Assembly (NCBI GenBank): GCA_015257795.3
Contig: CP072208.2
Location: forward strand, 510,001-542,000
Direction of reading: 5' to 3'
Source: Candidatus Nanogingivalaceae bacterium
Lineage (GTDB): Bacteria; Patescibacteriota; Saccharimonadia; Saccharimonadales; Saccharimonadaceae
DNA: 32,000 bases
The position numbers were made by a program, and so were the translations under genes. The notes under the pieces are model-generated. The model made no database searches and had not been told where the DNA came from. It saw only the letters and a program-made list of their open reading frames with translations. Below are positions 2,949-30,538 of the stretch, piece by piece (the first letter of the stretch is position 1; each line of letters begins with the position of its first letter).

Positions 2949-2972
2949 CTTTTGTTTCGAAAATGCTAAATA

Positions 2973-3001
2973 TTGACTTTTAACGCTTTTTATGTTATTA
3001 T
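2973..3001 (+). promoter_or_regulatory. promoter TTGACT-17-TGtTATTAT for the 3056 gene
   Basis: Consensus elements with exact 17-nt spacing. Confidence 0.7.
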
Positions 3002-3055
3002 ATAAGCATTCTAGTACCTTTACTGGAAAATTTTTATAGAAAGTGAGGGGTTGAT

Positions 3056-3544: not shown

Positions 3545-3557
3545 AATTTTCCTTTTC

Positions 3558-3582
3558 TACCCCATTTTTTGGGGTATTTTTT
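3558..3582 (+). terminator. rho-independent terminator
   Basis: TACCCC / GGGGTA stem with 7-nt loop, then TTTTTT. Confidence 0.75.
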
Positions 3583-3633
3583 ATTTGTAAAAAACAAACC
3601 GCTTGCGCTTATTGCTTTTATATTATATAGGTA

Positions 3634-3662
3634 TTGACTTTTTATTGCCTTTGTGCTATAAT
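3634..3662 (+). promoter_or_regulatory. promoter TTGACT-17-TGcTATAAT for the 3811 gene
   Basis: Consensus elements. Gives a leader of about 140 nt that contains the 26-bp palindrome. Confidence 0.7.
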
Positions 3663-3756
3663 TCTAGCAGTTGACATATCATAATCACTACGATTTGTCA
3701 ATGAAGCTTAACAAGAATTGGGTTATTATGAGGTATTAATCGTGCCTCAATAGTCA

Positions 3757-3782
3757 TTATTTATTTTGGCCAAAATAAATAA
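3757..3782. repeat. perfect 26-bp palindrome TTATTTATTTTGG|CCAAAATAAATAA in the 5' leader
   Basis: Base-by-base check: 13+13 nt are perfectly self-complementary with no loop. Confidence 0.8.
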
Positions 3783-3810
3783 AATCTGTATAGAAAGGAT
3801 GGTGCAAAAA

Positions 3811-5280: not shown

Positions 5281-5303
5281 TTTTTTCAATAACGATTAGC
5301 ACA

Positions 5304-5361
5304 TTTTGAAAGTTAAAACTTTCAAATTTCACGCTAGGCGGTTTCCCGCCGCCTGGCTTTT
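5304..5361 (+). terminator. two tandem hairpins ending the 3811-5280 transcript
   Basis: TTTGAAAGTT-AA-AACTTTCAAA, then CTAGGCGG..CCGCCTGG followed by CTTTT. Confidence 0.7.
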
Positions 5362-5432
5362 CATTGATATCTCTTAATAACCCAATTCTGTGTTAGGTTT
5401 TAACAATTCGGCAAGCGAAGAAAAACAAAATA

Positions 5433-5461
5433 TTGACAGACAGAATTATGATATTTATAAT
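5433..5461 (+). promoter_or_regulatory. perfect consensus promoter TTGACA-17-TATAAT
   Basis: TTGACA at 5433-5438, TATAAT at 5456-5461. Confidence 0.8.
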
Positions 5462-5501
5462 TAATAAAATTTCTAATAAAGTGGAGATTAGAAGGGAGAA
5501 A

Positions 5502-13721: not shown

Positions 13722-15251
13722 ATGAATAATGAAAAATCCTACCTAGAAAAAATCGGTCAGTTAATTCAAGAATATCGGCTTCACCAAAATCTAACCCAAG
13801 CTGAATTAGCTGAAAAAATTGGTACATCGCAAAGCGCAATAAATCGCATCGAGAGCGGTAAACAAAATATTACCGTTGAAATGCTTGCACGTATTTCAGA
13901 GGAACTTTCTAGCGAAATTATATCTGTTAATTCCCAGAAAAAAACCAATTTTCGAGTTCATGGTGGCCGTGAGCTTTCTGGAGAAATCGAAGTTAAAACT
14001 TCAAAAAATGCTGCAGTTGGATTACTTTGCGCCTCTCTCCTAAACAAAGGAAAAACCACTCTTCACCATGTTGCAAAAATCGAAGAAGTTAATAGGATCC
14101 TTGAAGTTTTAAATTCGATCGGCGTCAAAACAAAATGGTTAAATGATTCCAATGACCTAGAAATTATACCACCAAATGAATTAAATTTCGAAAATATGAA
14201 TATTGATTCAGCTAAGCGAACTCGCAGTATTTTAATGTTTTTTGGACCACTCCTACATCAATATTCCAACTTTCAAATTCCTTTTTCGGGTGGTTGCAAT
14301 CTCGGAACTAGAACTGTTGAGCCACATCTTGCTGGTCTTAAGCACTTTGGGGCAAATATCGTTGCAGAAACGGATTATTACGATGTCATAAATGAACCCA
14401 AAAAGGTTGAAAAAGCTATTCTTTTGACCGAACGCGGTGATACAACTACCGAAAATATCATTATGGCCGCTGCGCTTTCAGGCCAAAAAATCACTATTCG
14501 CAATGCTAGTCCAAACTATATGGTTCAAGATTTGTGCTTCTTTTTAGAAAAATTAGGTGTTAAAATTGAAGGAATCGGTACTACAACATTAGTAATTCAC
14601 GGGGTAGATAAAATAAACAAAGATGTTGAATATTATGTTAGCGAAGACCCGATTGAATCTATTACATTCGTTGCTGTTGCTCTAGTGACAAATTCAGAAA
14701 TTACTATTAAACGCGCACCTATTGAATTCAACGAACTCGAGCTCGCAACGCTCGAACAAATGGGTGCAAAATTTGAAATTAGCCCCGAATATCTTTCGAG
14801 AAATAAAAAAACTCGCTTAGTTGATATTACCGTTAAAAAATCAAAGCTACACGCCGCAAAAGACAAATTGCATGCACTACCTTTCCCTGGGATAAATATG
14901 GATAATTTACCTTTTCTAGGCCTAATTGCCACAGCCGCAGAAGGTAGAACCTTAGTTCACGACTGGAGCTACGAAAATCGCGCAATTTATTTTACGGAAC
15001 TTTCAAAGTTAAATGCTAGAATTGAGCTCGTTGACCCACACCGTGTTTACATATCCGGTCCGACAAAATGGAAACCAGCTGACATTATCGCTCCAAGTGC
15101 GCTTCGCCCAAGTGTTGTTGTTTTGATTGCAATGCTTGCCGCGCCAGGAATTTCAACTTTGCGCGACGTCTACAATATTAATCGCGGATATGAAGACTTT
15201 GCCGAACGATTAAATTCGCTTGGCGCAAAAATTGAAACTTTATTTTCATAA
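13722..15251 (+). CDS. murA: XRE-family HTH domain fused to UDP-N-acetylglucosamine 1-carboxyvinyltransferase
   Basis: 509 aa. Residues about 10-65 (LTQAELAEKIGTSQSAINRIESGKQNITVEML) form a classic HTH_3 domain. The rest is a full MurA fold including the active-site loop GGCNLGTRTVEPH with Cys retained. Confidence 0.85.
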   Translation: MNNEKSYLEKIGQLIQEYRLHQNLTQAELAEKIGTSQSAINRIESGKQNITVEMLARISEELSSEIISVNSQKKTNFRVHGGRELSGEIEVKTSKNAAVGLLCASLLNKGKTTLHHVAKIEEVNRILEVLNSIGVKTKWLNDSNDLEIIPPNELNFENMNIDSAKRTRSILMFFGPLLHQYSNFQIPFSGGCNLGTRTVEPHLAGLKHFGANIVAETDYYDVINEPKKVEKAILLTERGDTTTENIIMAAALSGQKITIRNASPNYMVQDLCFFLEKLGVKIEGIGTTTLVIHGVDKINKDVEYYVSEDPIESITFVAVALVTNSEITIKRAPIEFNELELATLEQMGAKFEISPEYLSRNKKTRLVDITVKKSKLHAAKDKLHALPFPGINMDNLPFLGLIATAAEGRTLVHDWSYENRAIYFTELSKLNARIELVDPHRVYISGPTKWKPADIIAPSALRPSVVVLIAMLAAPGISTLRDVYNINRGYEDFAERLNSLGAKIETLFS

Positions 15252-15775: not shown

Positions 15776-15853
15776 TGGGGCGAATGATGGGATTCGAACC
15801 CACGGCCTCCGGTGCCACAAACCAGCGCTCTAACCAACTGAGCTACATCCGCC
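15776..15853 (-). tRNA. tRNA-His (anticodon GTG) with encoded G-1 and CCA
   Basis: Reverse complement: G-1 + GCGGATG..CTGGT TTGTGGC ACCGG..TTCGAAT..CATTCGC C CCA. The G-1:C73 pair is typical of bacterial tRNA-His. Confidence 0.9.
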
Positions 15854-15865
15854 ATAGCTTTAACA

Positions 15866-15894
15866 ATTTTAACACACCCCCAGTTAAAAATCAA
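15866..15894 (-). promoter_or_regulatory. tRNA-His promoter TTGATT-17-TGtTAAAAT
   Basis: Read on the reverse strand, directly after the stop of the 163-aa gene. Confidence 0.6.
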
Positions 15895-15897
15895 GCT

Positions 15898-16389
15898 TTA
15901 AAATTTTGGTTTAATTTCTGGTTGAAAATTTTTTGTAATATTTTGCGTGGATTGTGAGATTCCAGAAGAGCCATAAAAACCAGCCATTCCCGACTGGGAA
16001 ACATTATCGAATCGATTTTCGCTATCCATTCCTTGTGCTTCCATTCTCATTCTAGTTGCTCGGTCGATTTGATCACCGGTAACCGTATTTTTTTGGCGAT
16101 TAGAGTTAAACATATAGTCATTATTTTCTCTTTCAATACGCTTTTGACGAATTTGATCAAGGGCTGTCATTGATGATTCCATTTTAGTTTTTTGCGCCAT
16201 TCTTAGTTGACCTAATTTCGAATCACCATAAGAACGAATTCTTGATTTACGATAATCGACTGCCTGACGCTGACTAAAACTTTGTGTGCTAGCAGCGCCA
16301 AAACGTCTACCAGATTGAGCTTTAGCGTAACCGCTAGAGTGAGCAACTTCTTCCAAGTTAGATTTCACGACATAATCATTCAGTTTCAT
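15898..16389 (-). CDS. hypothetical hydrophilic, basic, Q/S/R-rich protein (163 aa)
   Basis: No TM or signal peptide, low-complexity. Promoter -10 lies 6 nt from the ATG. Confidence 0.6.
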   Translation of the reverse strand: MKLNDYVVKSNLEEVAHSSGYAKAQSGRRFGAASTQSFSQRQAVDYRKSRIRSYGDSKLGQLRMAQKTKMESSMTALDQIRQKRIERENNDYMFNSNRQKNTVTGDQIDRATRMRMEAQGMDSENRFDNVSQSGMAGFYGSSGISQSTQNITKNFQPEIKPKF

Positions 16390-16395
16390 GTTATT

Positions 16396-16424
16396 ATATT
16401 AACATAAACATGTTATTTTTTCAA
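16396..16424 (-). promoter_or_regulatory. promoter TTGAAA-17-TGtTAATAT; the -10 ends 6 nt before the ATG at 16389
   Basis: Read on the reverse strand. No SD. Confidence 0.6.
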
Positions 16425-16431
16425 AAAAGTG

Positions 16432-16460
16432 TTGCTTTTATAGAAAATCTTTGTTATAAT
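16432..16460 (+). promoter_or_regulatory. tRNA-Gly promoter TTGCTT-17-TGtTATAAT
   Basis: The -10 ends 8 nt before the tRNA 5' end. Confidence 0.7.
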
Positions 16461-16468
16461 ATTTTTAT

Positions 16469-16543
16469 GCGGGCGTCGTATAACGGCTAATATACCTGCC
16501 TTCCAAGCAAGTGATGAGAGTTCGATTCTCTCCGCCCGCACCA
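16469..16543 (+). tRNA. tRNA-Gly (anticodon TCC), CCA encoded
   Basis: Acceptor GCGGGCG/CGCCCGC, anticodon loop CTTCCAA, 4-nt variable loop, T-arm GAGAG TTCGATT CTCTC. Confidence 0.9.
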
Positions 16544-16568
16544 TTTGATCTTTTTTGTTTTAGCATAA

Positions 16569-16591
16569 GCCTCCACTATCTGGAGGTTTTT
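16569..16591 (+). terminator. terminator after tRNA-Gly
   Basis: CCTCCA / TGGAGG hairpin followed by TTTTT. Confidence 0.75.
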
Positions 16592-16608
16592 GCTTTAAAA
16601 TAAACATA

Positions 16609-16637
16609 TGGACTTTTTTTAAAAAAATTGATATAAT
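16609..16637 (+). promoter_or_regulatory. promoter (weak -35 TGGACT, extended -10 TGaTATAAT) for tRNA-Arg(TCT) plus the methyltransferase
   Basis: TATAAT at 16632-16637, 12 nt before the tRNA 5' end. Confidence 0.55.
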
Positions 16638-16649
16638 TATTTTAGGTAC

Positions 16650-16726
16650 GCCCCCGTAGCTCAGTGGATTAGAGTAAGAGGTTTCTACCCTCCTGGCCGT
16701 AGGTTCGAGTCCTACCGGGGGTACCA
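16650..16726 (+). tRNA. tRNA-Arg (anticodon TCT), CCA encoded
   Basis: Acceptor GCCCCCG/CGGGGGT, anticodon loop TTTCTAC, T-arm GTAGG TTCGAGT CCTAC. Confidence 0.85.
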
Positions 16727-16733
16727 AGTTTTT

Positions 16734-17252
16734 ATGGAAATTATTTTTTATTTATTACTAACACTTTTCGGCATAATTATCGCCGTTTTTCTTTTGACTG
16801 TTTTATTTGGTGCGCCATATGTCCCAACTCACAAAAAAGAACTTATTAAACTCTTTAAAGCTATCAATCTTTCTGAAAAAGATACATTGGTTGATATTGG
16901 ATCAGGCGATGGTATTGTTTTAAAAATGGCAAGTAGTTTTAATGCTCGCGCAATAGGTTTTGAGATCAACCCATTTCTTGTGCTTTTTTCAAAAGTTAGA
17001 CTTCGAAAATGTAAAAATGTTCAAATTTACCTTAAAAATTTTTGGACGGTTTTTCCTATAGAAAATATTACAGTTTTCTACACCTTTGGTCATCAGGAAA
17101 GAATTCATAAAATGCTCAATTTATCTCAAATTCAAGCTAATGCACAAAAATCGCCTCTTCTTTTTATAAGTTATGGTTTTGAAATTAAAAATTTAAAACC
17201 CTTCAAAATATCTGGAGCTCATTTTGTTTATAAAATAAGTCCTAAAAAATAA
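16734..17252 (+). CDS. membrane-anchored class I SAM-dependent methyltransferase (172 aa)
   Basis: N-terminal TM helix, GAPYVPT, then motif I LVDIGSGDGIV. The ATG lies only 7 nt after the tRNA CCA end, with no SD. Confidence 0.75.
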   Translation: MEIIFYLLLTLFGIIIAVFLLTVLFGAPYVPTHKKELIKLFKAINLSEKDTLVDIGSGDGIVLKMASSFNARAIGFEINPFLVLFSKVRLRKCKNVQIYLKNFWTVFPIENITVFYTFGHQERIHKMLNLSQIQANAQKSPLLFISYGFEIKNLKPFKISGAHFVYKISPKK

Positions 17253-17259
17253 AAAAGAC

Positions 17260-17288
17260 TTTATTTTTAAAAATAAATATGCTATAAT
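17260..17288 (+). promoter_or_regulatory. tRNA-Lys promoter (weak -35, extended -10 TGcTATAAT)
   Basis: TATAAT at 17283-17288, 9 nt before the tRNA. Confidence 0.5.
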
Positions 17289-17297
17289 ACAAGTATT

Positions 17298-17374
17298 GGG
17301 CCAGTAGCTCAGCCGGTTAGAGCACCTGCCTCTTAAGCAGGGTGTCGAGGGTTCGAGCCCCTCCTGGCCCTCCA
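17298..17374 (+). tRNA. tRNA-Lys (anticodon CTT), CCA encoded
   Basis: Acceptor GGGCCAG/CTGGCCC, anticodon stem-loop CCTGC CTCTTAA GCAGG, T-arm GAGGG TTCGAGC CCCTC. Confidence 0.9.
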
Positions 17375-17426: not shown

Positions 17427-19802
17427 TTAACTTTGCTGAACAATATCCGGTGTAATCTCAATGTTTGAACCAGGCTGAGCTTCACCCGAAAGCATTTTTC
17501 GTGCAATTGTGTTCTCCACAACACGCTGAATTACCCTTCTCATTGGTCGAGCTCCCAATTTTGGATCGTAGCCCATCTCCGCAAGCATCAATCGTGCTTC
17601 AGGCGTAACTGAAACTGAAATTTTTTGCCCAGCAAGGGTTTTATTTACTCCTGCAATCATAAGATCAATAATCTGCAATAGATTTTCTTTTGTGAGTGGC
17701 TCGAAAACAACAATCTCATCAAAACGGTTCAGGAATTCAGGCCTAAATTCACGACTAGCTATCAAATCATTTACGATGACTTCTTCGGCGCTCGTAGAAT
17801 CATAACCGCGTGCAATAAGTTCTTGAATCCTTTCTGCTCCAGCGTTAGATGTAGCAATAATAATCGCATCTCTAAACGAGACTTCCCGGTTTTTCTCATC
17901 ACGCAAAATACCTTCATCCAAAACTTGCAAAAGTGCCGTCAACACATTCGGGTGCGCTTTTTCAATTTCGTCTAAAAGCACAACCGAAAAAGGTTTTTTC
18001 ATCATTTGAGCAGTTAGCGAACTCGCATCTCGCGATCCATCCGCAATCAACCGTGAAACATCATCAAGATTCACATATTCATTCAAATCAAGACGAATAA
18101 TATTATCTTCGCCATTAAAATATACTTCAGAAAGCGCTTTCGAAAGCTCAGTTTTTCCAACACCAGTTGGACCAAGGAATAAGAATGTTCCAATTGGTCG
18201 ATTCTGGTTTCGAACTCCGGTTCTTGCTCGACGCAAGGCATTTGCAACTACTGAAACAGCCTTTTCCTGTCCAACCATTCGTGCATGAAGTAGATTTTCT
18301 AGATTCAGAAGAGTTTCCTTTTCTTCATCAACGTTTGCTGTCGAAATTTTAACATTCATAGTTTGCTCAATAGCTTTTTCAACCGAGCTAGCTGTAACAA
18401 TCTTATTCTCAGCAAAACCGGCGGACATTTCCAGTAATCTAACCGCTCGACCTGGCATCTCTAAATCAAAAATATACCTTTGACTTAGTCGATAAGCTTC
18501 TTTAAGTGCTTGAAATTGATATAAAACTCCGTTTTGGTGTTCGAAAAGTAAAAGCTTGTCCTGCATAACCGCCAAAGTTTCATCATAATTGGCCGGATTT
18601 ACTTGTAGCCTATTCATTGCCTGCGCTAAGGCTGGATTTTTAGCTGAAATCTGTAAAAATCTCTGCTCGTCCATAGTTAAAATCATACGTAAAACCCCGC
18701 CTTGAATTATCGGTAGAAGCAAGTTCGAAACATCAACTGAACCAACCCCGTCTTCGAAGAATAATTGTGCATTATCAAGACAAATAATAATATTTTTAGC
18801 AGCATACGCTTCATTCAAAACATAATTTAGTAAATTCTCAATTTCACCGCGCCCAGGAGCCGCAGCAATCAACGAAGATGCATCCAATGAGATAACTTGT
18901 CTAAATTTTAGATTTGAAGGTATTTTTTCATTACCATTAGCGATTTTTGCCGCAAAAGAATTTACAACCGTCGTCTTTCCAACACCATCAACACCAATAA
19001 GAGCAATGTTTTGCTTACCTTGACCGCTAAATTGTTCAATCATCTTCGAAACCAGCTCTTTGTGCTGCTCTAGATTAGAAGACATTAAAATATTATTTGA
19101 TACCTGGTTGGTAATATTTACCCCGAAACGATTCAATGTTGGCGTATATCCGAACGACCAGTCTCTTGCGATTCCACCAGTTTTCATCGGAATCTTAGAT
19201 TTATTAATTAGCGAAAAAATATGGTCATGCCAAAGGACACCCCTCTCAAGATCTTCAAAATCAACATAAAATTGAGCTAAAAGTGTTTCATAATTTGGAA
19301 AATTTCGAACAATAGCTAAAACTAAAACTGACCCTGAAACAGTTTTAGTTTTTAATTTTTGTTGAATTTGAAGCGCAGTTTGAAAAATATTTTCTGGAGA
19401 ATTTTGCGGAATCTGAACTAGACTTTCTATTGTAGTTTTTCCAAGCCCAAACCTAGCCGCAATAAACTTTCCACCAGAACTTTCAAGAACAACTTTAGCA
19501 ATCTGTTCACTTGTTGGGTTTTTTGACAACCTGCCGAGTATATTGCTTGCCATTTGCCCTTCAATAGTGAATTCTGCCGAAGGCGCCAATCTATGCAATT
19601 CACCGTTCCACCAGTTAATCAGTATTGTTACAACCGAAACAATAGCTAAAACTATCCAGCCCAAAGCCGAATCCATAAAAATCAAAGAAAAACCACTTAT
19701 AGCGCCAACAATCTTAAGTAAATTTAAGAGGGGTAAAAACAACCTTAAAATATTCATTAAGCGTGATTTTTTTGCTCGTAAATGGTTATAATTAAAACTC
19801 AT
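17427..19802 (-). CDS. membrane-anchored Clp/Hsp100-family double-AAA+ ATPase (ClpA-like layout, degenerate D1 Walker B)
   Basis: ATG 19802 overlaps the upstream stop as ATGA, with AAGGGG SD. Two N-terminal TM helices and Clp_N-like repeats. D1 has GVDGVGKTT and IICLDNAQ (DE replaced by DN). D2 has GPTGVGKTE, VVLLDEIEKAH, ATSNAG and GARPMRR. Confidence 0.85.
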   Translation of the reverse strand: MSFNYNHLRAKKSRLMNILRLFLPLLNLLKIVGAISGFSLIFMDSALGWIVLAIVSVVTILINWWNGELHRLAPSAEFTIEGQMASNILGRLSKNPTSEQIAKVVLESSGGKFIAARFGLGKTTIESLVQIPQNSPENIFQTALQIQQKLKTKTVSGSVLVLAIVRNFPNYETLLAQFYVDFEDLERGVLWHDHIFSLINKSKIPMKTGGIARDWSFGYTPTLNRFGVNITNQVSNNILMSSNLEQHKELVSKMIEQFSGQGKQNIALIGVDGVGKTTVVNSFAAKIANGNEKIPSNLKFRQVISLDASSLIAAAPGRGEIENLLNYVLNEAYAAKNIIICLDNAQLFFEDGVGSVDVSNLLLPIIQGGVLRMILTMDEQRFLQISAKNPALAQAMNRLQVNPANYDETLAVMQDKLLLFEHQNGVLYQFQALKEAYRLSQRYIFDLEMPGRAVRLLEMSAGFAENKIVTASSVEKAIEQTMNVKISTANVDEEKETLLNLENLLHARMVGQEKAVSVVANALRRARTGVRNQNRPIGTFLFLGPTGVGKTELSKALSEVYFNGEDNIIRLDLNEYVNLDDVSRLIADGSRDASSLTAQMMKKPFSVVLLDEIEKAHPNVLTALLQVLDEGILRDEKNREVSFRDAIIIATSNAGAERIQELIARGYDSTSAEEVIVNDLIASREFRPEFLNRFDEIVVFEPLTKENLLQIIDLMIAGVNKTLAGQKISVSVTPEARLMLAEMGYDPKLGARPMRRVIQRVVENTIARKMLSGEAQPGSNIEITPDIVQQS

Positions 19803-20275
19803 AGCCAACCCCTTTTCTTTGTTTTAGCTGGTTTCACTTCTTTCTTTAAGCTACTATTTTTTTGCCAAGTCATAAAATCATCACGGATTTTTGGGACAAT
19901 TTTTGGTGTCCAGCCTGTTGTAAAAATAACAACAAGAACTAATGGTAAAACCGGTAAAACTAACCATAACAATAATAAAACCAAGCCCCATAAAGCTTTA
20001 AATGCAATAAAAAATACACCAATTATCATCACTATTGTTCTTAAAAAAGCACCAATAAACCGTGAAAAAAGCTTGTCAAAGAATTTTCGAATTCGAACTT
20101 CAAGTGAAACATTCGAAACCGCAATCGCATCAATCTGGCGAAACGGCGAAAACCAAGTTTTTACTAATAATCCAAGAGAAAAAGTATCTATTGACCGCTC
20201 AACTCCATCTAATATTTTTTCTGCACGCCAAGCTAGACCTTTTCCATACCACCAAGTTAAAAAAGACATAAACAT
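19799..20275 (-). CDS. hypothetical polytopic membrane protein (158 aa), first gene of the Clp-like operon
   Basis: ATG 20275 lies 6 nt after a TGtTATAAT -10; the GTG at 20290 in the ORF track lies inside the promoter. Hydrophobic core with a basic C-terminal tail. Confidence 0.7.
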   Translation of the reverse strand: MFMSFLTWWYGKGLAWRAEKILDGVERSIDTFSLGLLVKTWFSPFRQIDAIAVSNVSLEVRIRKFFDKLFSRFIGAFLRTIVMIIGVFFIAFKALWGLVLLLLWLVLPVLPLVLVVIFTTGWTPKIVPKIRDDFMTWQKNSSLKKEVKPAKTKKRGWL

Positions 20276-20281
20276 AATTAA

Positions 20282-20310
20282 ATTATACACTAAAATATTT
20301 TTTTTCGCAA
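20282..20310 (-). promoter_or_regulatory. promoter TTGCGA-17-TGtTATAAT; the -10 ends 6 nt before the ATG at 20275
   Basis: Read on the reverse strand. No SD. Confidence 0.65.
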
Positions 20311-20401: not shown

Positions 20402-21907
20402 ATGGATATACTGATAGCTGCGCTTGGCGTTCTGTTTGGCGGTGCTGGAGCTTTTACGTATCAAAAAATTAAATCTGCAAATGCAAAAAATAACTCCGAT
20501 AAAATTATCGCCGAGGCAAGAAAAAAGTCAGCCGAAATCCTAGAAAGAGCTAATGAAAAAGCATTAAGAATTACCGAAAAAGCTAACGAAGATGAATCTG
20601 AACGACGCAAGGAAATTCGAAAAACCGAAAATCGTTTGGCTGAGCGCGAAGAATCACTCGATCGAAAGCTTGATCAGATTGATTCTCGCAATGAAAAGCT
20701 TCGAAATGATGAAATGGAAGTTGAAAAACTTAAAAATGAAGTTAAGGAAATTCGAAAAAAACAGCATGAAAAACTCGAGAAAATTGCTAAACTTTCGAAA
20801 AAAGAAGCTGCCGAGAAAATCCTTAAACTTACCGAAAAAAGCGTAACTCAAGATATGATAAACCTAGTTGCAAAACTTCAAAAAAATGCAACTGAAGATG
20901 CCGAGGAACGCGCTCAAACAATTTTAGTTTCAGCTATGGAAAGAATTTCTAGCGAAGTTACAGCCGAAAGAACCGTCACTGCTCTTAAGCTCCCAGACGA
21001 CGAGATGAAAGGCAGAATTATCGGAAAAGAAGGTCGCAATATTCAAGCCCTTCAGCGCGAAACTGGCGTAGATATCCTCGTTGACGACACTCCTGGAATG
21101 GTTGTTTTATCAAGTTTCGACCCTGTCCGCCGCCAAATTGCTAGACTTGCGCTTGAATTGTTAATGAAAGACGGCCGAATTAACCCTGCACGAATCGAGG
21201 AAGTTGTAGAAAAAGCAGAGCGCGAAATTAATAAAGAAATCAATCGTGCCGGTGAAGATGCTGCACGAGAAGTTGGGCTTTCTGGCTTACCTCGTGAAAT
21301 GTTACGGCTTTTGGGTGAACTAAAATTTCGAACAAGCTATGGCCAAAATGTTCTTAAACATTCAACCGAAATGGCTAATGTTGCTGGACTCATCGCTGAA
21401 GAGATTGGTGCAAATGTAACAATCGCCAAAACTGCCGCACTATTCCACGATATTGGAAAAGCTGTAACTCATAAAATTGAAGGAAAACACGCCCAAATCG
21501 GTGCTGAACTTGCTGAAAAATACGGCATGGATCCACGCGTAGTTAATGCCATAGCTGCGCATCACGAAGATGTTGAAGCTACTACGGTCGAAGCAATTAT
21601 AGTTAAAATAACTGACGCAATGAGTGCTTCTCGACCAGGAACAAGAAATGCTTCTGCTGAAAACTTTGTAGAACGAATGCGCGAACTTGAAAATGTTGCT
21701 ACAAGTTTCAAAGGTATAAACAAAGCTTACGCAATCTCAGCTGGTCGCGAGATTCGAGTAATTGTTTCTCCTGAAGCCGTTGACGATCTTTCAGCAATTA
21801 AAATGGCTCGAGATATTGCCGATAAAATTGAAAGCACAATGCAATATCCTGGCGTAATTAAAGTTAATATTATACGAGAAACTCGAGCAATCGAATACGC
21901 AAAATAA
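20402..21907 (+). CDS. rny: ribonuclease Y
   Basis: 501 aa. N-terminal TM helix, long charged coiled coil, KH domain (GRIIGKEGRNIQ), HD domain (LFHDIGK...AAHHED). Confidence 0.95.
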   Translation: MDILIAALGVLFGGAGAFTYQKIKSANAKNNSDKIIAEARKKSAEILERANEKALRITEKANEDESERRKEIRKTENRLAEREESLDRKLDQIDSRNEKLRNDEMEVEKLKNEVKEIRKKQHEKLEKIAKLSKKEAAEKILKLTEKSVTQDMINLVAKLQKNATEDAEERAQTILVSAMERISSEVTAERTVTALKLPDDEMKGRIIGKEGRNIQALQRETGVDILVDDTPGMVVLSSFDPVRRQIARLALELLMKDGRINPARIEEVVEKAEREINKEINRAGEDAAREVGLSGLPREMLRLLGELKFRTSYGQNVLKHSTEMANVAGLIAEEIGANVTIAKTAALFHDIGKAVTHKIEGKHAQIGAELAEKYGMDPRVVNAIAAHHEDVEATTVEAIIVKITDAMSASRPGTRNASAENFVERMRELENVATSFKGINKAYAISAGREIRVIVSPEAVDDLSAIKMARDIADKIESTMQYPGVIKVNIIRETRAIEYAK

Positions 21908-21948: not shown

Positions 21949-23178
21949 TTACTGGTTTTTACAGTTAACGTTCGAATTACTCAATCTTGTTACTGAAAAG
22001 TCTTTACAAATAGGTTCTTTTTCGTTTTTAGTTTGCGCTGAGAACAAAGGAACCGGAAAGCTAGTATCGTTAAATCCAATCCTACTCTCCACGCGCCTTA
22101 ACTGTGTGTTAGCACGACCAGTTGAATCAACTTTTGGCTGAACACCAGCAAAATCAACAACATTATCACCATTTAACAATTCAACTTCAAAGTTCGAATC
22201 ATTCATTAAAGGCGTTAGGCGCAAATATAGAACATCACGAGGATCGACACTTCGGCCAATATTTACCGTCGTTTGGCAAGCATATGTATTAGAATTCGCA
22301 TCCATTCTATCCGAACACCTTGTAAAAGTGTAGTCGGTAGTTGCATCTGAAGAAGAGTCATTTCTTCGAACCCTTGGCATATTTGGTGCATCTGGACTTA
22401 ATAAGCTACTACTATTACTGTTTACTGGATAAAAAAGCATTTCACTTGCACCGTTTTTATCATCTGGGTATGGCGTATCCATAATTGAAGACGACCTTTC
22501 AACGCCTGGAATATAACCATAGAATTGAGCTTTCAAAATAGCAGGTCGGTTTTGGTTGCGCCAGTTTCGTGAATCAATCCTTGGGCGTACCGATGGATTA
22601 CTTAATGAGTCTAATGCGATATTATTGCCATTTGTCATATTTTCTCTTGAATGCCATCGAATACGCACACGATTGAATGCTGTAGTACCCCTAAGATTAA
22701 TCACCGAAGGCGAACCGTCATTAGTTCTTCCTAGAAAATCAGCAGTATTCATTCTTAATTTTACACATGTATACGCCTGGTTTAAACTTGCATCGTTACT
22801 TGCTCCACCGGCTCCAGAGGTTGTTTGAATAATTGTTTCACTGTTAGCATTTCCAATTCCTGCTGTAGCTAAAACATAGCAACTATCACTCCGGATTGCA
22901 TCTCTCATAGCATTACAATCATAGTGCCCCCCTTCAAAATCACCTGTTCCAGATGGCCCACAGGCCGATCGGAAGATTCGCAAAAACCTTTTCGCGTCTT
23001 CAACGCCAGCCTGCGCACTATCGTAAGCACTCTGTGAAAGATCCAACTTACTAGCTTGTTCTTGATCTCGAAACATAAGCCTAAGGAAGCTTGCCGACAT
23101 AATCGAAACCAAAACACCAACAACAATAACGATAAATATCGAAACGCCACCTTTTTTAAAATTCTTATTACTCTTCAT
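21949..23178 (-). CDS. PilX/GspK-like pseudopilin-type protein (PilX N-terminal-like helix, no Glu5), 409 aa
   Basis: N-terminus KKGGVSIFIVIVVGVLVSIMSASFLRL...QSAYDSAQAGVEDA resembles the PilX_N family. 8 Cys. C-terminal GRANTQLRRVESRIGF. AAGGAG SD. Confidence 0.65.
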   Translation of the reverse strand: MKSNKNFKKGGVSIFIVIVVGVLVSIMSASFLRLMFRDQEQASKLDLSQSAYDSAQAGVEDAKRFLRIFRSACGPSGTGDFEGGHYDCNAMRDAIRSDSCYVLATAGIGNANSETIIQTTSGAGGASNDASLNQAYTCVKLRMNTADFLGRTNDGSPSVINLRGTTAFNRVRIRWHSRENMTNGNNIALDSLSNPSVRPRIDSRNWRNQNRPAILKAQFYGYIPGVERSSSIMDTPYPDDKNGASEMLFYPVNSNSSSLLSPDAPNMPRVRRNDSSSDATTDYTFTRCSDRMDANSNTYACQTTVNIGRSVDPRDVLYLRLTPLMNDSNFEVELLNGDNVVDFAGVQPKVDSTGRANTQLRRVESRIGFNDTSFPVPLFSAQTKNEKEPICKDFSVTRLSNSNVNCKNQ

Positions 23179-23187
23179 TGTTTCTCC

Positions 23188-25683
23188 TTAATATCGTACC
23201 GGAAGTTCCTTGGTATAAGTTGTTACGATCTTTCCTTGGCCACCAGATTGTGCTTGTCCCCACAAATAAGTATCTGCAGATTGTTTGATAATTTCTGCCG
23301 GCTCCGAAAGAGAACTGGCAGTTTTTCCATCAGAACCATGCGTTCGCCACAATTTGAGCGTATTAGAAAGTGTTCCACCCCGAATCTGCAACTGCTCGTT
23401 ACAATTTCCTGTTGTAACATTTTGTATATTTTGAAGACCATTTACAGCACAAGTGTTGATAGTTCCCTTAGCAATCAACCAAGCATCGATTCTTTTCACA
23501 TTTTGATCAATAGTGATATTTCCATCTGCAATAATTATTATCTGTCTAAAATCACTATCGCTATTTACGGTCCTATCATCATTGGTAATATCACTAATAA
23601 TCCGAAGGTTCTTACCATAAATAACCTTAGTTGTTCTGTCTGCACTAAAACCACCTATTTGCTCTGTATCATCATAAACATTAACTGTCATTTCTGAATT
23701 ATTTGTATTTTGTCGAGGAAATTTAGATGCAATCGAACTAATAACCGAATCAATACTTGGAGCTCCTTGTCCAAAATTACCTATTGAAGTATAGTTTTCA
23801 ATAGCTAATCGACGTGTGCTTTGTGAAGATTCTGTGCGGAAATTTCGAATATTTCCACCTGTTATAGCTTCATACTCAACCCAAGAACCTAATACTCCTT
23901 CTTTTGTTGGAGATAAGCTAGTTCTAATACCTGCGCGAGAAAATACACCATTTCCCCAGAACTGAACTTTTGGCTTTTTTACAACCTTAATACAGATTGG
24001 CGCACTGTGCCTCCACTGATTATTGTTTGCTTCTTGATCAGCCTTACTTTGTGTATCGCTCATCTTATATGGTGAAATTGAAAGCGCCACACAATACCTT
24101 GTTCCAGCTTCAGCTCCTTCTTCAATTTCAGGAATAAAGTCCGCAATTCTTGTATTTCTATCATACGATCTTCCAGAGCTATCTTCTCTAACAACTCTAC
24201 AATTTTCTAACACCTGATAAACTTCTGAGTAGAAATTGTTTGCAGCACAAGTATCACCGTTTTCGTTATCTCGCCTATTATTTACGGTTACGCGACCTTC
24301 CCTGGCAGCAGGAACGCGCCAAGTTGTAATTTTGTATCTTATCGGAGAAGTTCCCGTTCCGTTGTCAGGCACTTCAATTTCTTCACCATTATTTGGATCT
24401 GGTGGAATTCTACCATCGGTTGGCACATCAATATCACCACCCGAACAGTTTTTAATTTTATCTATCTTCACACAAGGAGTAACATCAAAATTATATGGAA
24501 CATATACACAAGCTTCATTTGTTCTTTGATTAAATCTGTTACGGTTGTCTGTACCTCCGGGCTGAGACTCAATACTGTACGCCATACTTGAACAAATAGT
24601 TTTTCCAGCCATTTGTTTGGTAACTTTAAATATTTCACCATTTTCATTTGTACTGTTAACCGTATCTGTTAAAAGACCTTGGTTAATTAAAGTTTTACGA
24701 GATTCATAGCCATATCTTCGCCAAATAAATCCACCATGATTACTAATAGTTGTATCACCACTACCATTATTTCTAAATGTAGTATAAGATCCAAAACCTT
24801 GAACATCAGGCTTGTTGAAATCTTTACCGATTACAGTATGTTTAAACGAAACCCACTGGCCAACTTTTGCAGTTTGTGGATTGTTTCGACCATTGCTTTT
24901 AAATCTTGTATCATCAGATCTAATGCTTTGGCTCGAATTCAATACCGCAGCCTTGGTGCTTGACTCAACATTGAACTTAATTGGTGCGCTAATACGGATG
25001 CTTATATCGCGACTATAGCAGTTTCCAGGATTAGTAATAGGATTATCAACATACTCATACGGGTCTTTATCGGCGGGGTAAGGTGGCACGCGCTCTCCCG
25101 ACTCTGCCTTAGCGCATTGGTGGAGAGAAAATGTAAGAAAATCACCATCTTTAAACTTATTAATAGCTTCTGACTTAACAATTACCGTTATGACGCCAGT
25201 ACGTTTTAATTCCCCTGGTTGAGCACCATAGCTATGGGAAGCTCCTTGCCCAGCCTCGCCTTTTGCTTTGCCAGGAGAAGTGATAAGATATTTAGCATCA
25301 TGACGGCCCGCATTAATCCTAACATTAACTGCAGAGCCTGATTGATATGTATTCTTACAAGGTAAAACAGCAGTGTTTATATAAAAAACCCTCTTATCCT
25401 CACTAAGCTCAAAGTTCTTCTTTTCATAAATGGCGTTAATGTTTTTATCGCCATTTTCATCAGAAGAGATCCAGTTTGCCGTTGCAATATAATTATCACC
25501 ACCATATTTCTCGAAAAATGTCGTGCCTCCACCGTAAAGAACCTCATACATTGTAAATTTTCTACACGCATCTCGCAACTGTCTTTGCACAACTCCAGGT
25601 ACGTCTGCACTTGCGCCTTTAGAAAAAGATATAACGCCAAATAGGGCTAGCGCTATAGCTAAAAAGATTTTTTTACTATCCAT
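23188..25683 (-). CDS. large secreted protein of unknown function (831 aa) with repeated Cys-bracketed modules
   Basis: ATG 25683 is preceded by GAGGA at 8-nt spacing and overlaps the upstream stop by 8 nt. Signal peptide KKIFLAIALALFGVISFSKGASA. 14 Cys by my count. No catalytic motif recognised. Confidence 0.75.
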   Translation of the reverse strand: MDSKKIFLAIALALFGVISFSKGASADVPGVVQRQLRDACRKFTMYEVLYGGGTTFFEKYGGDNYIATANWISSDENGDKNINAIYEKKNFELSEDKRVFYINTAVLPCKNTYQSGSAVNVRINAGRHDAKYLITSPGKAKGEAGQGASHSYGAQPGELKRTGVITVIVKSEAINKFKDGDFLTFSLHQCAKAESGERVPPYPADKDPYEYVDNPITNPGNCYSRDISIRISAPIKFNVESSTKAAVLNSSQSIRSDDTRFKSNGRNNPQTAKVGQWVSFKHTVIGKDFNKPDVQGFGSYTTFRNNGSGDTTISNHGGFIWRRYGYESRKTLINQGLLTDTVNSTNENGEIFKVTKQMAGKTICSSMAYSIESQPGGTDNRNRFNQRTNEACVYVPYNFDVTPCVKIDKIKNCSGGDIDVPTDGRIPPDPNNGEEIEVPDNGTGTSPIRYKITTWRVPAAREGRVTVNNRRDNENGDTCAANNFYSEVYQVLENCRVVREDSSGRSYDRNTRIADFIPEIEEGAEAGTRYCVALSISPYKMSDTQSKADQEANNNQWRHSAPICIKVVKKPKVQFWGNGVFSRAGIRTSLSPTKEGVLGSWVEYEAITGGNIRNFRTESSQSTRRLAIENYTSIGNFGQGAPSIDSVISSIASKFPRQNTNNSEMTVNVYDDTEQIGGFSADRTTKVIYGKNLRIISDITNDDRTVNSDSDFRQIIIIADGNITIDQNVKRIDAWLIAKGTINTCAVNGLQNIQNVTTGNCNEQLQIRGGTLSNTLKLWRTHGSDGKTASSLSEPAEIIKQSADTYLWGQAQSGGQGKIVTTYTKELPVRY

Positions 25684-26107
25684 TAATAGCATCCTCTACG
25701 CTATTAATTTGAACCCCAGAAGGGTCCATTCTATATATATTGCGTATATTTTCAATTTTAAGACTTGGGCTTTGGCCTTTTTCTACCAATTCTTTTAGAG
25801 TTTTATATGTTTCTTCTTGATTTTTTGTACCAATCGAGAACCTTATCGCTACACAGTTAGCATCTTTCTCGTTTCCCGACATTTTTGCAATTTCTTCACC
25901 CAAAGCTTTTGAGTTTTTCTCATATGCATCTTTTGGCCCTTTTATATTGTTGTATTTATCGATAATTTTATCATCACAAACTGTTCCAACAGAGCTCTTT
26001 ACTTTAGTTATATCGTTGTTGTATCTAACAAACTGAAAAATGTTTGCTCCCAAACTTAAAATAGCAATAGTTAAAACTAAGCCAAGCGTTATTTTATGCC
26101 TCTTCAT
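25676..26107 (-). CDS. small N-terminally anchored extracytoplasmic protein (143 aa), first gene of the operon
   Basis: ATG 26107 (MKRHKITLGLVLTIAILSLG...) follows GGAAGGA. 2 Cys. Confidence 0.7.
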   Translation of the reverse strand: MKRHKITLGLVLTIAILSLGANIFQFVRYNNDITKVKSSVGTVCDDKIIDKYNNIKGPKDAYEKNSKALGEEIAKMSGNEKDANCVAIRFSIGTKNQEETYKTLKELVEKGQSPSLKIENIRNIYRMDPSGVQINSVEDAING

Positions 26108-29842: not shown

Positions 29843-29871
29843 TTGATAAAGTACTGTTTTTATGCTATTAT
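29843..29871 (+). promoter_or_regulatory. promoter TTGATA-17-TGcTATTAT; the -10 ends 7 nt before the ATG at 29879
   Basis: The TTG taken as the start in the ORF track is the -35 box. Confidence 0.65.
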
Positions 29872-29878
29872 AATAATT

Positions 29879-30538
29879 ATGGTTAAAATCTCAATTGATG
29901 AAACTGGAAATCTCGGTGAAGGCGGTGGTGATTATTTTGTAATTGCTGCCAGTGTCATGAAAACTCCTGAAGCTCAAAAAAAGGCCGCAAGACTAATTCG
30001 AAAAACTCAAAAAAAGCGGTTTGGCGTTTTTCGAAAAGAAATTAAATTTAGCGAAATGAATTTTGAAGAACGAGTTGATATTTTAAATCAAATTGCTTTA
30101 ATCGATAATGTTTATATTTATTACATTGCTATCTATAAACCTAATGCAGCGATTCTACGCAAGCTGCCTCATAATCTAGCCTATAATTACTTTTCTGGAA
30201 TGTTAATTGATCGTATCGTTAGTGATTTCAATGAAGATATCAAGGTCGTATTTGACCAGCGCTCAACTGCTATAAAATCTCAAAATTCACTTCTTGAATA
30301 CATCACTATCCGCGCAGCAACTAACCCAAACTTTAATCGTACAATTTTTGTTACTCAAAAAGATTCGCGTAGTAGTAAACGCCTCCAGTTTGCAGACGTT
30401 ATTGCGGGTGCTATCGGAAGCTTCTATCGACACAGTGGCGACACTTCCCTAATCTCTATTATTGAGCCAAAAATTATAAAATGCCATTGCGAAGAATATC
30501 CTGAAGCCAATTTTATAAACCCCTTTCTCAAAAAATAA
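29879..30538 (+). CDS. DUF3800-like protein (219 aa)
   Basis: Starts MVKISIDETGNLG. C-terminal RLQFADVIAGAI. Both resemble the DUF3800 signature (N-terminal DE[ST]G, C-terminal Q.AD) from memory. Confidence 0.65.
   Translation: MVKISIDETGNLGEGGGDYFVIAASVMKTPEAQKKAARLIRKTQKKRFGVFRKEIKFSEMNFEERVDILNQIALIDNVYIYYIAIYKPNAAILRKLPHNLAYNYFSGMLIDRIVSDFNEDIKVVFDQRSTAIKSQNSLLEYITIRAATNPNFNRTIFVTQKDSRSSKRLQFADVIAGAIGSFYRHSGDTSLISIIEPKIIKCHCEEYPEANFINPFLKK

Follow-up and report, generated by a model that had tools for sequence, protein, structure and literature searches.

Two overlapping genes on the reverse strand of a Candidatus Nanogingivalaceae genome (contig CP072208.2 of assembly GCA_015257795.3) encode a small membrane protein, B, and a larger ATPase, A (Table 1; coordinates are those of the window, the whole 32,000-nucleotide stretch that was analysed). 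Both genes have alternative starts: a TTG two codons upstream of the A ATG would give a protein of 793 residues, and a GTG at 20290 would extend B to 163 residues, although this codon falls inside the -10 region. The initial annotation had the start of A overlapping the stop of the 158-residue gene as ATGA and the pair expressed from one leaderless-type promoter, and both claims are borne out. The ATGA overlap, which would couple translation of the two genes, is found in 29 of 79 orthologous loci, and in the remaining loci the genes are adjacent within a few nucleotides. Promoter-like sites in the region are not more numerous than in shuffled sequence, and the site ahead of B matches at 10 of 12 positions; its -10 stops 6 nt ahead of the B ATG at 20275, and at least 12 divergent Saccharibacteria loci share this geometry, with TAtAAT or TACAAT 6 nt ahead of the ATG. 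The pair may be transcribed as a leaderless bicistronic mRNA.

Table 1. Features of the B-A locus, in order of transcription, with positions in the window
Feature	Coordinates	Strand	Basis
Sigma-70-type promoter, TTGCGA-17 nt-TATAAT	20282..20310	-	10/12 match
Gene B, 158-aa small membrane protein, partner of A	19799..20275	-	ORF
B residues 32-47, signature motif FSLGLLVKTWFSPFRQ	20135..20182	-	Family consensus FSIxLLLKTLFAPWRRD
B residues 72-120, hydrophobic stretch, read as two-TM hairpin	19916..20062	-	Kyte-Doolittle, invariant columns
ATGA overlap of B stop and A start, putative translational coupling	19799..19802	-	Sequence
Gene A, 791 aa from ATG	17427..19802	-	ORF, stop codon included
A residues 8-69, N-terminal TM helical hairpin	19596..19781	-	Kyte-Doolittle, AF2
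A residues 75-205, divergent all-helical N-domain, Clp_N-like fold	19188..19580	-	Foldseek
A residues 209-223, family signature GGIARDWSFGYTPTL, N-domain-D1 linker	19134..19178	-	Column conservation
A residues 236-490, D1 AAA+ module, degenerate ring	18333..19097	-	ClpB/ClpC alignment, family statistics
D1 Walker A GVDGVGKTT, intact	18969..18995	-	Alignment
D1 pore-loop position AAAPGRGEIE (ClpB AGAKYRGEFE), Tyr replaced	18837..18866	-	Alignment
D1 Walker B IIICLDNAQ, catalytic Glu to Asn	18765..18791	-	Aligned to ClpB VILFIDELH
D1 arginine-finger position NPALAQAMNR (ClpB DPALERRFQP), both Arg gone	18609..18638	-	Alignment
A residues 495-785, D2 AAA+ module and C-terminal D2-small	17448..18320	-	Pfam, alignment
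D2 pore loop 1 SRLIADGSRDASSLT, acidic and polar, no GYVG tyrosine	18012..18056	-	Alignment
D2 sensor-1 (TSN)-to-Arg-finger segment, no IG[FL] ClpP-docking loop	17742..17852	-	Segment length, motif scan

The open reading frame and Pfam profile searches uphold the initial identification of A as a two-ring Clp/Hsp100 ATPase. Matches to AAA_2 (8.2e-45), ClpB_D2-small (5e-25) and AAA_lid_9 (5.9e-6) all lie above gathering cut-offs, and the order of a D1 AAA module with AAA_lid_9, an AAA_2-type D2 (residues 535-697) and ClpB_D2-small (703-783) is that of the Clp/Hsp100 class I superfamily. ClpA, ClpC and ClpB, with the same succession of N-domain, D1, D2 and D2-small, were matched by phmmer in the PDB and are the best PDB and NCBIfam matches. 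However, the curated NCBIfam Clp cut-offs are each roughly three times the score of A (ClpB TIGR03346, 442 against 1232; ClpA TIGR02639, 380 against 993), and it scores 298 against 1350 for model PRK11034. ClpV/TssH of type VI secretion was rejected on its score (TIGR03345, 300 against 885) and on the neighbours of gene A, which are RNase Y, tRNAs and housekeeping genes. DolB of the Dodola system was rejected too: its match is limited to the generic D2 region (3.9e-35), gene B has no PADLOC match, and B-A is a conserved core chromosomal module, whereas Dodola pairs DolB with DolA in a defence island.

Protein A differs from the soluble Clp ATPases first in being an integral membrane protein with an obligate small membrane partner. 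Two N-terminal transmembrane helices had been noted, and they appear both as Kyte-Doolittle peaks (residues 15-33 and 40-58) and in the AF2 model (overall pLDDT 90.9) as helices 8-42 and 47-69 at pLDDT >93; nearly all full-length representatives of the family have N-terminal transmembrane segments. Because a basic N-terminus precedes the hairpin, the ATPase body is cytoplasmic. The domain that follows was initially described as Clp_N-like repeats, which stands for the fold but not for the sequence profile. Foldseek with the AF2 model returned, as its top 50, only N-domain-type structures of ClpC, ClpC1, ClpC2, Hsp101 and Hsp104, at weak E-values (5e-3 to 0.35; TM about 0.45-0.5), pointing to an N-domain fold shared with ClpA, ClpC and ClpB, but Pfam Clp_N (PF02861) had no match in A or 31 relatives even at E <= 1 (0/32), and one distant family member, P0200, carries a weak precomputed Clp_N match. 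The linker between N-domain and D1 is the best-conserved section of the N-terminal third of A (43% mean identity). Its nearly invariant columns are G209, G210, R213, D214, W215, G218, P221 and L223, and the family consensus is GG[IL][AG]RDWxxG[YW]TP.

The D1 ring is degenerate. Residue statistics for D1 and D2 were taken over 132 full-length representatives of the family. The D1 Walker A, correctly noted as retained, has its Lys in 105 of these and is maintained throughout the Saccharibacteria clade; the Walker B Glu, correctly noted as replaced by Asn, survives in 24, and the xCLDNAx form is present in about 58 of 69 Saccharibacteria. We also observed losses that the initial annotation had missed. 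The pore-loop Tyr (KYRGE to PGRGE) is found in 0 of 132, with AAPGRGE conserved in Saccharibacteria, and the two arginine fingers (ALERRF to ALAQAM) remain as Arg in 8 and 5. The DE to DN and RR to QA changes rule out a catalytically active D1 of the ClpA/ClpB/ClpC type. On these motifs, D1 probably binds ATP and cannot hydrolyse it, and the conservation of a DN Walker B together with an intact Walker A in Saccharibacteria argues that this state is selected rather than the result of random decay.

Judged by its motifs, D2 is the only catalytically complete ring of A: the Walker A Lys, Walker B Asp and Glu, sensor-1 Asn, Arg finger (FLNRFD) and sensor-2 Arg are each invariant in 132/132. Nearly all the sequence features listed initially hold, but the statement that D2 is otherwise canonical was wrong. 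Its pore loop 1 (RLIAD-GSRDASSLT, where ClpB has RLIGAPPGYVGYEEGGQLT) is 5 residues shorter than its ClpB and ClpC counterparts and has neither the GYVG tyrosine nor any other aromatic. Saccharibacteria keep the pattern RLIADG[AS]x[DN]xxSLTA, loop sequence and length are variable across the wider family, and an aromatic lies within the loop window in 20/138 representatives. The conserved DG[AS]x[DN] may still touch substrate, and non-aromatic pore loops do not strictly exclude translocation.

Two further absences separate A from known Clp machines, as the initial annotation had recognized. The IG[FL] loop that docks ClpA and ClpC on ClpP is missing: the segment between D2 sensor 1 and the Arg finger is 37 aa, as in 110 of 143 representatives, and so close to ClpB (35 aa) rather than to S. 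aureus ClpC (42 aa, with AGF), and a scan of it for [ILVMA]G[FLM] found no such tripeptide in A and any in just 3/143. With no docking-loop tripeptide and scores below the equivalog thresholds, A was rejected as a ClpP-coupled unfoldase of the ClpA/ClpC/ClpE kind. The coiled-coil M-domain of ClpB and ClpC is missing as well, and the D1-D2 linker is short: A aligns with ClpA in one colinear stretch (242-785 with 187-735), whereas the match to ClpB splits into 223-491 and 469-783 and leaves ClpB residues ~420-521 unmatched. Thus A resembles ClpA in its D1-D2 spacing and ClpB in its D2, where the two share about 45-50% identity in the aligned region. A ClpB/Hsp104-type disaggregase was rejected because the M-domain and the D1 KYR and D2 GYVG tyrosines are all absent.

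Gene B had no match in Pfam, NCBIfam or PADLOC. We found 435 homologues of its product; among the 120 listed, all are short standalone proteins and the named ones are CPR "hypothetical proteins". B has a helical domain at its N-terminus and, after it, a single hydrophobic stretch of ~50 residues (AF2 model pLDDT 89.8). In the signature motif of the N-terminal domain, F32, S33, L37, T40 and P44 are invariant or nearly so, and the hydrophobic stretch begins with invariant R72, G75 and R79. AF2 renders the hydrophobic segment within a single continuous helix, 58-120. In the fusion proteins P0170 and P0250, however, nothing else between the B N-domain and the ATPase is hydrophobic. The stretch must therefore span the membrane in an even number of passes, and with the positive-inside rule it is best read as a two-TM hairpin. 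Of the initial description of B as polytopic, the hydrophobic membrane protein stands, now qualified to this one stretch.

The association of B with A is strict. B lies directly upstream of A in 79/79 testable Saccharibacteria genomes and on 4/4 other family contigs. When the B signature motif was used as a probe, it retrieved 340 metagenome loci, and all 64 that could be tested were linked to the ATPase, 19 as N-terminal fusions and 45 as adjacent genes. B is fused to the N-terminus of A in at least 15 of 150 representatives, one Berkelbacteria protein among them. The upstream membrane gene is therefore co-conserved, adjacent or fused, in every testable locus, which strongly supports the proposal that the ATPase acts with a small membrane partner. 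Genes flanking the pair differ between lineages, and the B-A neighbourhoods that were inspected showed no conserved genes for transport.

A is a Clp/Hsp100 paralogue whose family is large, has no annotation of its own and is limited to CPR (Patescibacteria) wherever the source names an organism. Relatives 99% identical to A occur in oral Saccharibacteria (Ca. Nanogingivalaceae), and one family-specific motif alone finds the family in 364 species-level genomes; its members carry generic labels such as "Clp protease ATP-binding subunit" or "AAA family ATPase". We propose a new family of CPR membrane-anchored Hsp100-like proteins, whose defining traits are one or more N-terminal transmembrane segments, the linker motif, a D1 that has degenerated, a D2 that is complete and has a non-aromatic pore loop, and a B partner, upstream or fused; A shows all of them.

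Published transposon sequencing of Southlakia (PMC10633639) marks the ATPase family as core and covers what is, from domain coordinates and gene order, an apparent orthologous B-A pair, SEML1_0700 and SEML1_0701. Both genes were called NE, NE, GD and their reads drop in parallel, so that the pair is non-essential with an equal, mild fitness cost for the two genes (PMC10633639). The mild phenotype shows a function dispensable in co-culture. The pair adjoins murT, and Southlakia separately encodes a canonical ClpC (SEML1_0512, with two Clp_N domains and UVR) and ClpP (SEML1_0493) (PMC10633639); the canonical proteins thus coexist with the apparent A orthologue.

As a membrane-bound AAA+ machine, B-A probably represents a type not described before. 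The reading we favour, to which we give about an even chance, is that B and A form one two-component inner-membrane machine that is independent of ClpP, driven by D2 and remodels its clients without canonical threading. The hairpin of A keeps the ATPase on the cytoplasmic face of the membrane. In the A hexamer, an ATP-bound D1 would serve as a static assembly ring, as do NSF D2 and Pex1/Pex6 D1, leaving D2 as sole motor. The cytosolic helical domain and TM hairpin of B, beside the TM hairpin and N-domain of A, may form a platform for clients or regulators at the membrane, with LFAPWRRD of B and GGIARDW of A as candidate contact sites. The complex would act on membrane or membrane-proximal clients without ClpP or DnaK coupling and add to fitness without being essential. 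Since neither ring has a gripping aromatic, the complex more likely remodels or disassembles its clients in short, non-processive strokes, in the style of Torsin or NSF, than threads whole polypeptides. The initial annotation had already argued against a classical disaggregase or ClpP component, and the missing M-domain and ClpP loop and scores far below the NCBIfam cut-offs agree. Its positive label was "unfoldase or extractase". The partner and the non-classical role survive, but the label implies threading, was drawn assuming a canonical D2, and is not supported as stated.

The closest functional parallels come from other branches of the superfamily. Pex1/Pex6 with Pex15/PEX26, and NSF, likewise combine a non-hydrolysing structural ring with a motor ring, and Pex1/Pex6 works at the membrane through a small membrane-anchored partner, but it is a eukaryotic, soluble ATPase of the classic AAA clade, where A is a membrane-embedded Clp/Hsp100 protein. 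Torsins with LAP1/LULL1 share with A a Clp/Hsp100 D2 kinship, membrane association, a lack of aromatic loops and dependence on a transmembrane partner (PMC5425593). They differ in being single-ring proteins of the ER lumen that take their Arg finger from the cofactor, itself a degenerate AAA+ fold, whereas B is a small helical protein and the D2 of A has its own Arg finger and sensor 2; the two rings and the invariant finger led us to reject A as a Torsin-like AAA+ protein. Msp1/ATAD1, FtsH and Bcs1 also place an AAA+ ring (a hexamer, or a heptamer in Bcs1) at the membrane by an N-terminal anchor, but they are single-ring classic AAA proteins with no Clp_N domain, dead extra ring or B-like partner. 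A TM-anchored AAA+ protein can work without classical threading, as is reported for Bcs1 (PMC10567702).

The strongest alternative, though we think it unlikely, is that A is a canonical extractase or unfoldase that pulls membrane proteins through its axial pore as Msp1 and FtsH do, with B as adaptor. The membrane tether, a substrate-binding domain of Clp_N fold, the fully competent D2 motor and the conservation of the D2 loop within Saccharibacteria are all consistent with this. It has a precedent in Pex1/Pex6, where D1 is dead, D2 is active and a protein anchors the complex to the membrane, and which is nonetheless reported to thread substrate, although its D2 retains aromatic pore loops (PMC5762779). 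A lacks such loops in both rings, and its D2 loop is short in this clade and variable family-wide. The pore-loop aromatic drives threading in Clp/Hsp100, FtsH and Msp1, and known threading motors, including Pex1/Pex6 D2, Msp1 and FtsH, retain it.

Two other readings are distinctly improbable, and about equally so. In one, B-A uses ATP to gate or energise a membrane conduit, previously unrecognised and so far confined to CPR, in which six A and six B hairpins make a ring of about 24 helices beneath an Hsp100-derived hexamer; D2 cycles would open the ring or push folded or non-protein cargo, such as lipid or nucleic acid from the host, across the membrane in the manner of Bcs1 or FtsK. Each protein does contribute one hairpin, some fusions have a ~75-residue hydrophobic block, invariant Arg, Gly and Pro lie in or beside the B TM segment, the axial loops have polar and charged rather than aromatic residues, and the named members all belong to the CPR, a group relying on uptake from host cells. 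However, P0170 and P0250 have a single hairpin per subunit, and neither the mild transposon phenotype nor the lack of conserved transport neighbours fits. If true, the conduit would tie the module to the epibiotic, uptake-dependent CPR lifestyle. In the other, A is a largely non-mechanical scaffold or nucleotide switch that performs little or no work on a substrate and tunes some other process at the membrane, for instance envelope synthesis or division. That both rings have lost their gripping loops suits this role, as does the position beside murT in Southlakia (PMC10633639), and Torsin provides a Clp-related, membrane-associated ATPase with no aromatic loops and very slow turnover (PMC5425593). 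Against it, the gene neighbourhood changes from lineage to lineage, and the 132/132 invariance of six D2 catalytic residues, Arg finger and sensor 2 included, indicates selection for real hydrolysis, unlike in Torsin, which has no Arg finger. That A is simply what the NCBI and JGI Clp names of near-identical proteins and its best database matches say is barely credible, given its curated-model scores, its dead D1, its missing M-domain, ClpP loop and pore tyrosines, and the canonical ClpC that Southlakia encodes besides.

Textbook Clp/Hsp100 motors are soluble and thread their substrates by means of tyrosines. A large, conserved, membrane-embedded Hsp100 family with one dead ring, no pore aromatics and an obligate novel partner would widen the known uses of this scaffold, and B-A would offer a bacterial counterpart to unresolved questions about Torsin and Pex1/Pex6. 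The family is at present hidden in CPR/Patescibacteria under generic Clp and AAA labels, and with Saccharibacteria now genetically tractable, the function of B-A is directly testable.

A, the two-ring Clp/Hsp100-type ATPase of this locus, is membrane-anchored and combines a degenerate first ring (D1) with a catalytically complete second ring (D2). It has no M-domain, ClpP-docking loop or aromatic pore loops, and it is obligately linked to B, the small membrane protein encoded upstream. The residues of A were read from alignments to T. thermophilus ClpB and S. aureus ClpC and from a 153-sequence alignment. In D1, Walker A is intact (GVDGVGKTT) and Walker B is IIICLDNAQ, with Asn at the position of the catalytic Glu, as the initial annotation had read it; the pore loop is PGRGE versus KYRGE in ClpB, and the Arg-finger region is ALAQAM versus ALERRF. 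D2 retains Walker A, Walker B, sensor-1, the Arg finger (FLNRFD) and sensor-2 (GARPMRR). The initial annotation had called D2 otherwise canonical, which is wrong for pore loop 1: RLIAD-GSRDASSLT in A, versus RLIGAPPGYVGYEEGGQLT in ClpB, is shorter by five residues and contains nothing aromatic. Its reports of a missing M-domain and a missing ClpP loop were borne out. ClpB ~420-521 has no counterpart in the alignment, and A is colinear with ClpA along a single stretch; between sensor-1 and the Arg finger, A has 37 aa, close to the 35 of ClpB, versus 42 in S. aureus ClpC, where they include AGF.

These features extend across a family. In 1.84 billion representatives, searched exhaustively with HMMER, there are about 40 full-length clusters with 37-56% identity and over 100 others, with 32-41% identity, that have A's features, and nearly all full-length members carry one to three N-terminal TM segments. 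Over 132 full-length representatives, the D2 Walker A Lys, Walker B Asp, Walker B Glu, sensor-1 Asn, Arg finger and sensor-2 Arg are each kept in 132/132, while D1 keeps its Walker A Lys in 105/132, its Walker B Glu in 24/132, its Arg fingers in 8/132 and 5/132, and its pore-loop Tyr in 0/132. Any aromatic residue at all occurs in the D1 loop window of 21/138 representatives and in the D2 loop window of 20/138, and an [ILVMA]G[FLM] tripeptide occurs in the ClpP-loop region of just 3/143. The degenerate state is itself conserved in the 69 Saccharibacteria sequences of A: Walker A is kept, Walker B is xCLDNAx in about 58, the D1 loop is AAPGRGE and the D2 loop is RLIADG[AS]x[DN]xxSLTA. Because of this conservation, it looks as though D1 has been selected to bind ATP without hydrolysis, and the D2 loop to be polar and acidic, rather than either having drifted. 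Some representatives (P0124, P0183, P0198, P0258 and P0262) have lost the D1 P-loop consensus in the Walker A column (e.g. GDQGIPKAD, GDDQDYKKS, SDSDVEKES), and D1 in their lineages probably has no nucleotide binding left. One DNA pattern specific to the family was enough to find relatives in 364 species-level genomes, the best 80 being essentially all Saccharibacteria; family members named outside this group include Berkelbacteria.

The two N-terminal TM helices proposed for A are seen both in the hydrophobicity profile (segments 15-33 and 40-58) and in an AF2 model of residues 1-234 built using 32 family sequences (pLDDT 90.9), where long helices at 8-42 and 47-69 precede an all-helical domain. 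Both ends of this hairpin would lie in the cytoplasm, given that the N-terminus is basic (RAKKSR) and that the ATPase needs cytosolic ATP. The Clp_N-like repeats described initially stand at the level of fold and not of sequence. Pfam Clp_N matches neither the N-terminal 231 aa of A nor any of 32 family N-termini (A and 31 relatives), for which Pfam returned spurious TM-type matches alone, such as Holin_SPP1 and DUF4131. Despite this, the top 50 Foldseek matches of the N-terminal model in the PDB are all of the Clp/Hsp100 N-domain type (ClpC, ClpC1, ClpC2, Hsp101, Hsp104), at E values of 5e-3 to 0.35 and target TM-scores of roughly 0.45-0.5 for domain-sized entries, so the modelled domain is probably a strongly diverged Clp_N fold. 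The linker between it and D1 carries a nearly invariant family-specific motif, GG[IL][AG]RDWxxG[YW]TPxL.

The link between B and A holds from both sides, in agreement with the initial proposal that the ATPase acts with its small membrane partner. Starting from A, 80 Saccharibacteria loci were compared (the best 80 of the relatives in the 364 genomes): in 79, the gene directly before A, in the same orientation, is a B homologue, and the 80th has no upstream DNA; the ATGA overlap recurs in 29 of the 79. In each of four members from outside Saccharibacteria, a B homologue of 110-131 aa (HMM E 1e-17 to 1e-22) ends 2-10 nt before A. Starting from B, the motif LL[RK]TLF[AYQ]PW yields 340 metagenome loci. 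Among the best 80 of these, B is fused to the ATPase at 19 loci and directly followed by the ATPase gene at 45, and the other 16 end too soon after B to be tested; B without the ATPase was found at none of the 64 testable loci. Fusions recur: at least 15 of 150 A-family representatives begin with a B domain, which takes up residues 1 to ~120; one fusion is from Berkelbacteria, and its locus has no separate B gene. Together, the two-way co-occurrence and the repeated fusions are strong genomic evidence that B and A form a physical and functional complex. On one non-Saccharibacteria contig (L084), a ClpP (CLP_protease) gene at 1-593 shares the strand of the B-A pair (2603-5529) and lies ~2 kb upstream of it, and no gene is called in the gap; this neighbour was not seen at other inspected loci and is probably a coincidence.

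B itself has no match in Pfam, NCBIfam or PADLOC. A profile search gave 435 homologues, of which the best 120 are all standalone proteins of 114-174 aa, and the few of these with names are each a 'hypothetical protein' of Saccharibacteria, Nomurabacteria or the Patescibacteria group. The invariant positions are W8, Y10, S33, T40, P44, S71, R72, G75, R79, G86 and P108, and the signature motif is FSIxLLLKTLFAPW[RK][RK]D. An AF2 model (pLDDT 89.8) has helices at 2-31, 34-40, 43-50, 58-120 and 126-144, and Foldseek searches of the PDB with it gave generic long-helix matches only (best E = 2) and no meaningful neighbour. The N-terminal regions of the fusions take two forms: in P0182, P0174, P0202 and P0210, the first 230 aa include a hydrophobic block of ~75 residues, which fits a B hairpin plus an A hairpin, and P0170 and P0250 have only ~45 hydrophobic residues, a single hairpin, so family members differ in how many TM helices each subunit has. 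The hydrophobic stretch 72-120 of B, one helix in the model, would make an even number of membrane crossings, since in fusions of the P0170/P0250 type nothing else hydrophobic separates the B N-domain from the cytosolic ATPase, and the C-terminal tail is strongly basic.

Features of the B-A locus and its surroundings (window coordinates)
Feature	Position	Strand	Remarks
DUF11-repeat protein	5433-7811	+	792 aa
HTH/enolpyruvyl transferase ORF	13722-15251	+	509 aa; XRE-type HTH_3 (residues 15-62) joined to MurA/EPSP_synthase-family domain (80-497)
tRNA cluster	15776-17374		His, Gly, Arg, Lys; just downstream of A
RrnaAD-like methyltransferase ORF	16734-17252	+	small; N-terminal stretch hydrophobic
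Gene A	17427-19802	-	791 aa counted from ATG
ATGA	19802-19799	-	common to B stop and A start
Gene B	19799-20275	-	158 aa counted from ATG
Promoter	20310-20282	-	TTGCGA-17-TATAAT, 10/12 match
RNase Y	20402-21907		divergent from B-A pair
Large ORF	21949-23178	-	409 aa; no Pfam match
Large ORF	23188-25692	-	834 aa; no Pfam match
DUF3800 protein	29843-30538	+	

The overlap of the two genes is present as first annotated, and so is the leaderless-type promoter. Sigma-70-like sites show no excess in this AT-rich region (8 versus a shuffled expectation of 9.5), so the promoter call draws on conservation across species. At no fewer than 12 divergent loci of Saccharibacteria (window 20276-20310, L022, L024-L026, L028, L030, L035, L042, L044, L050 and L073), a TAtAAT or TACAAT hexamer precedes the B start codon by 6 nt, too close for a Shine-Dalgarno sequence to fit in between, an arrangement that points to a conserved leaderless mRNA for the B-A operon. 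A start at the GTG at 20290, upstream of the B ATG, is unlikely because it sits within the -10 box. AAGGGG lies 6 nt upstream of the A ATG, and A would be translated by coupling to B through the overlap. Housekeeping genes surround the pair (among them SHMT, MurB, PolA, BipA, RNase Y and four tRNA genes). A PADLOC match of A to DolB is no more than similarity in the generic part of D2, at a locus of core housekeeping genes, and a defence system is rejected. The tRNA-Lys gene converges on A, 52 nt past its stop, with no intrinsic terminator predicted between them. Elsewhere in the window, the joining of a regulator and a cell-wall enzyme within one 509-aa protein is unusual, and the adjacent 409-aa and 834-aa ORFs, the former with a pilin-like hydrophobic N-terminal segment in its translation, may encode pilus- or surface-associated epibiont proteins.

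The reading that we favour, with moderate confidence, is a composite one. A would form a hexamer with ATP-bound D1 as a static assembly ring and D2 as the motor, B and the Clp_N-like domain of A would make a membrane-proximal platform for a client or regulator, and the machine would work without ClpP and DnaK. Since neither ring has gripping aromatics and the length and sequence of the D2 loop vary across the family, the machine would be likelier to remodel or disassemble in short strokes, a mode discussed for Torsins (PMC5425593), than to thread processively. The invariant D2 Arg finger suggests that D2, unlike Torsin, is a self-sufficient ATPase. A genuine threading extractase, the role proposed initially, has the complete D2 ring in its favour and the same non-gripping loops against it, and we regard it as unlikely. 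Lower still we place a gate or energiser of a membrane conduit, which would agree with the membrane segments of both proteins, and, at a similarly low level, a mainly regulatory scaffold, which would suit the loss of gripping loops in both rings and sits poorly with a D2 site kept in every representative.

Published data on Southlakia epibionticum bear on function and on identity. The Tn-seq tables of Wang et al. 2023 give SEML1_0700 as an 'AAA family ATPase', flagged as a core family, with AAA_2 at 544-706, ClpB_D2-small at 713-792 and no Clp_N, and SEML1_0701 as a 127-aa hypothetical protein directly upstream and overlapping it (PMC10633639). Architecture and gene order are the same as in the window, and we infer that the two are orthologues of A and B. 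Both are called NE, NE and GD across three passages, and the normalised reads drop for each (SEML1_0700: 4124, 2517, 1638; SEML1_0701: 258, 157, 51) (PMC10633639), which suggests that the genes are dispensable yet costly to lose and share a phenotype class. The genome also encodes a canonical ClpC (SEML1_0512; Clp_N x2, UVR) and ClpP (SEML1_0493) (PMC10633639), so the membrane ATPase is an extra paralogue and not the cell's ClpC. TM7x has been reported to carry 'clpB' and clpP. It is hardly credible that A is an ordinary ClpB or ClpC orthologue, as A widely misses all curated NCBIfam equivalogs (ClpB 442 versus 1232 bits, ClpA 380 versus 993, ClpV 300 versus 885). Pfam matches A to AAA_2 (535-697, 8e-45), ClpB_D2-small (703-783, 5e-25) and AAA_lid_9 (407-496), and generic AAA matches to D1 are weak.

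Homology places A in the Clp/Hsp100 superfamily, but it differs from ClpB in lacking the M-domain and pore tyrosines and from ClpA and ClpC in lacking the ClpP loop and an active D1, and by their defining tests it is neither ClpV nor DolB. Pex1/Pex6-Pex15 and NSF likewise pair a dead ring with an active one for work at membranes; Torsin-LAP1 resembles B-A in being Clp-related, with non-aromatic loops and reliance on a TM partner; and Msp1, FtsH and Bcs1 are AAA+ rings with a TM anchor, but none of these systems has all of A's features together. We found no description of the A family in the literature on Clp/AAA+ proteins of Saccharibacteria and Patescibacteria or on membrane-anchored Hsp100 proteins. 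We regard A as a distinct, unannotated Hsp100-derived membrane machine, so far only from CPR bacteria where the source is named, and B as its novel obligate partner.
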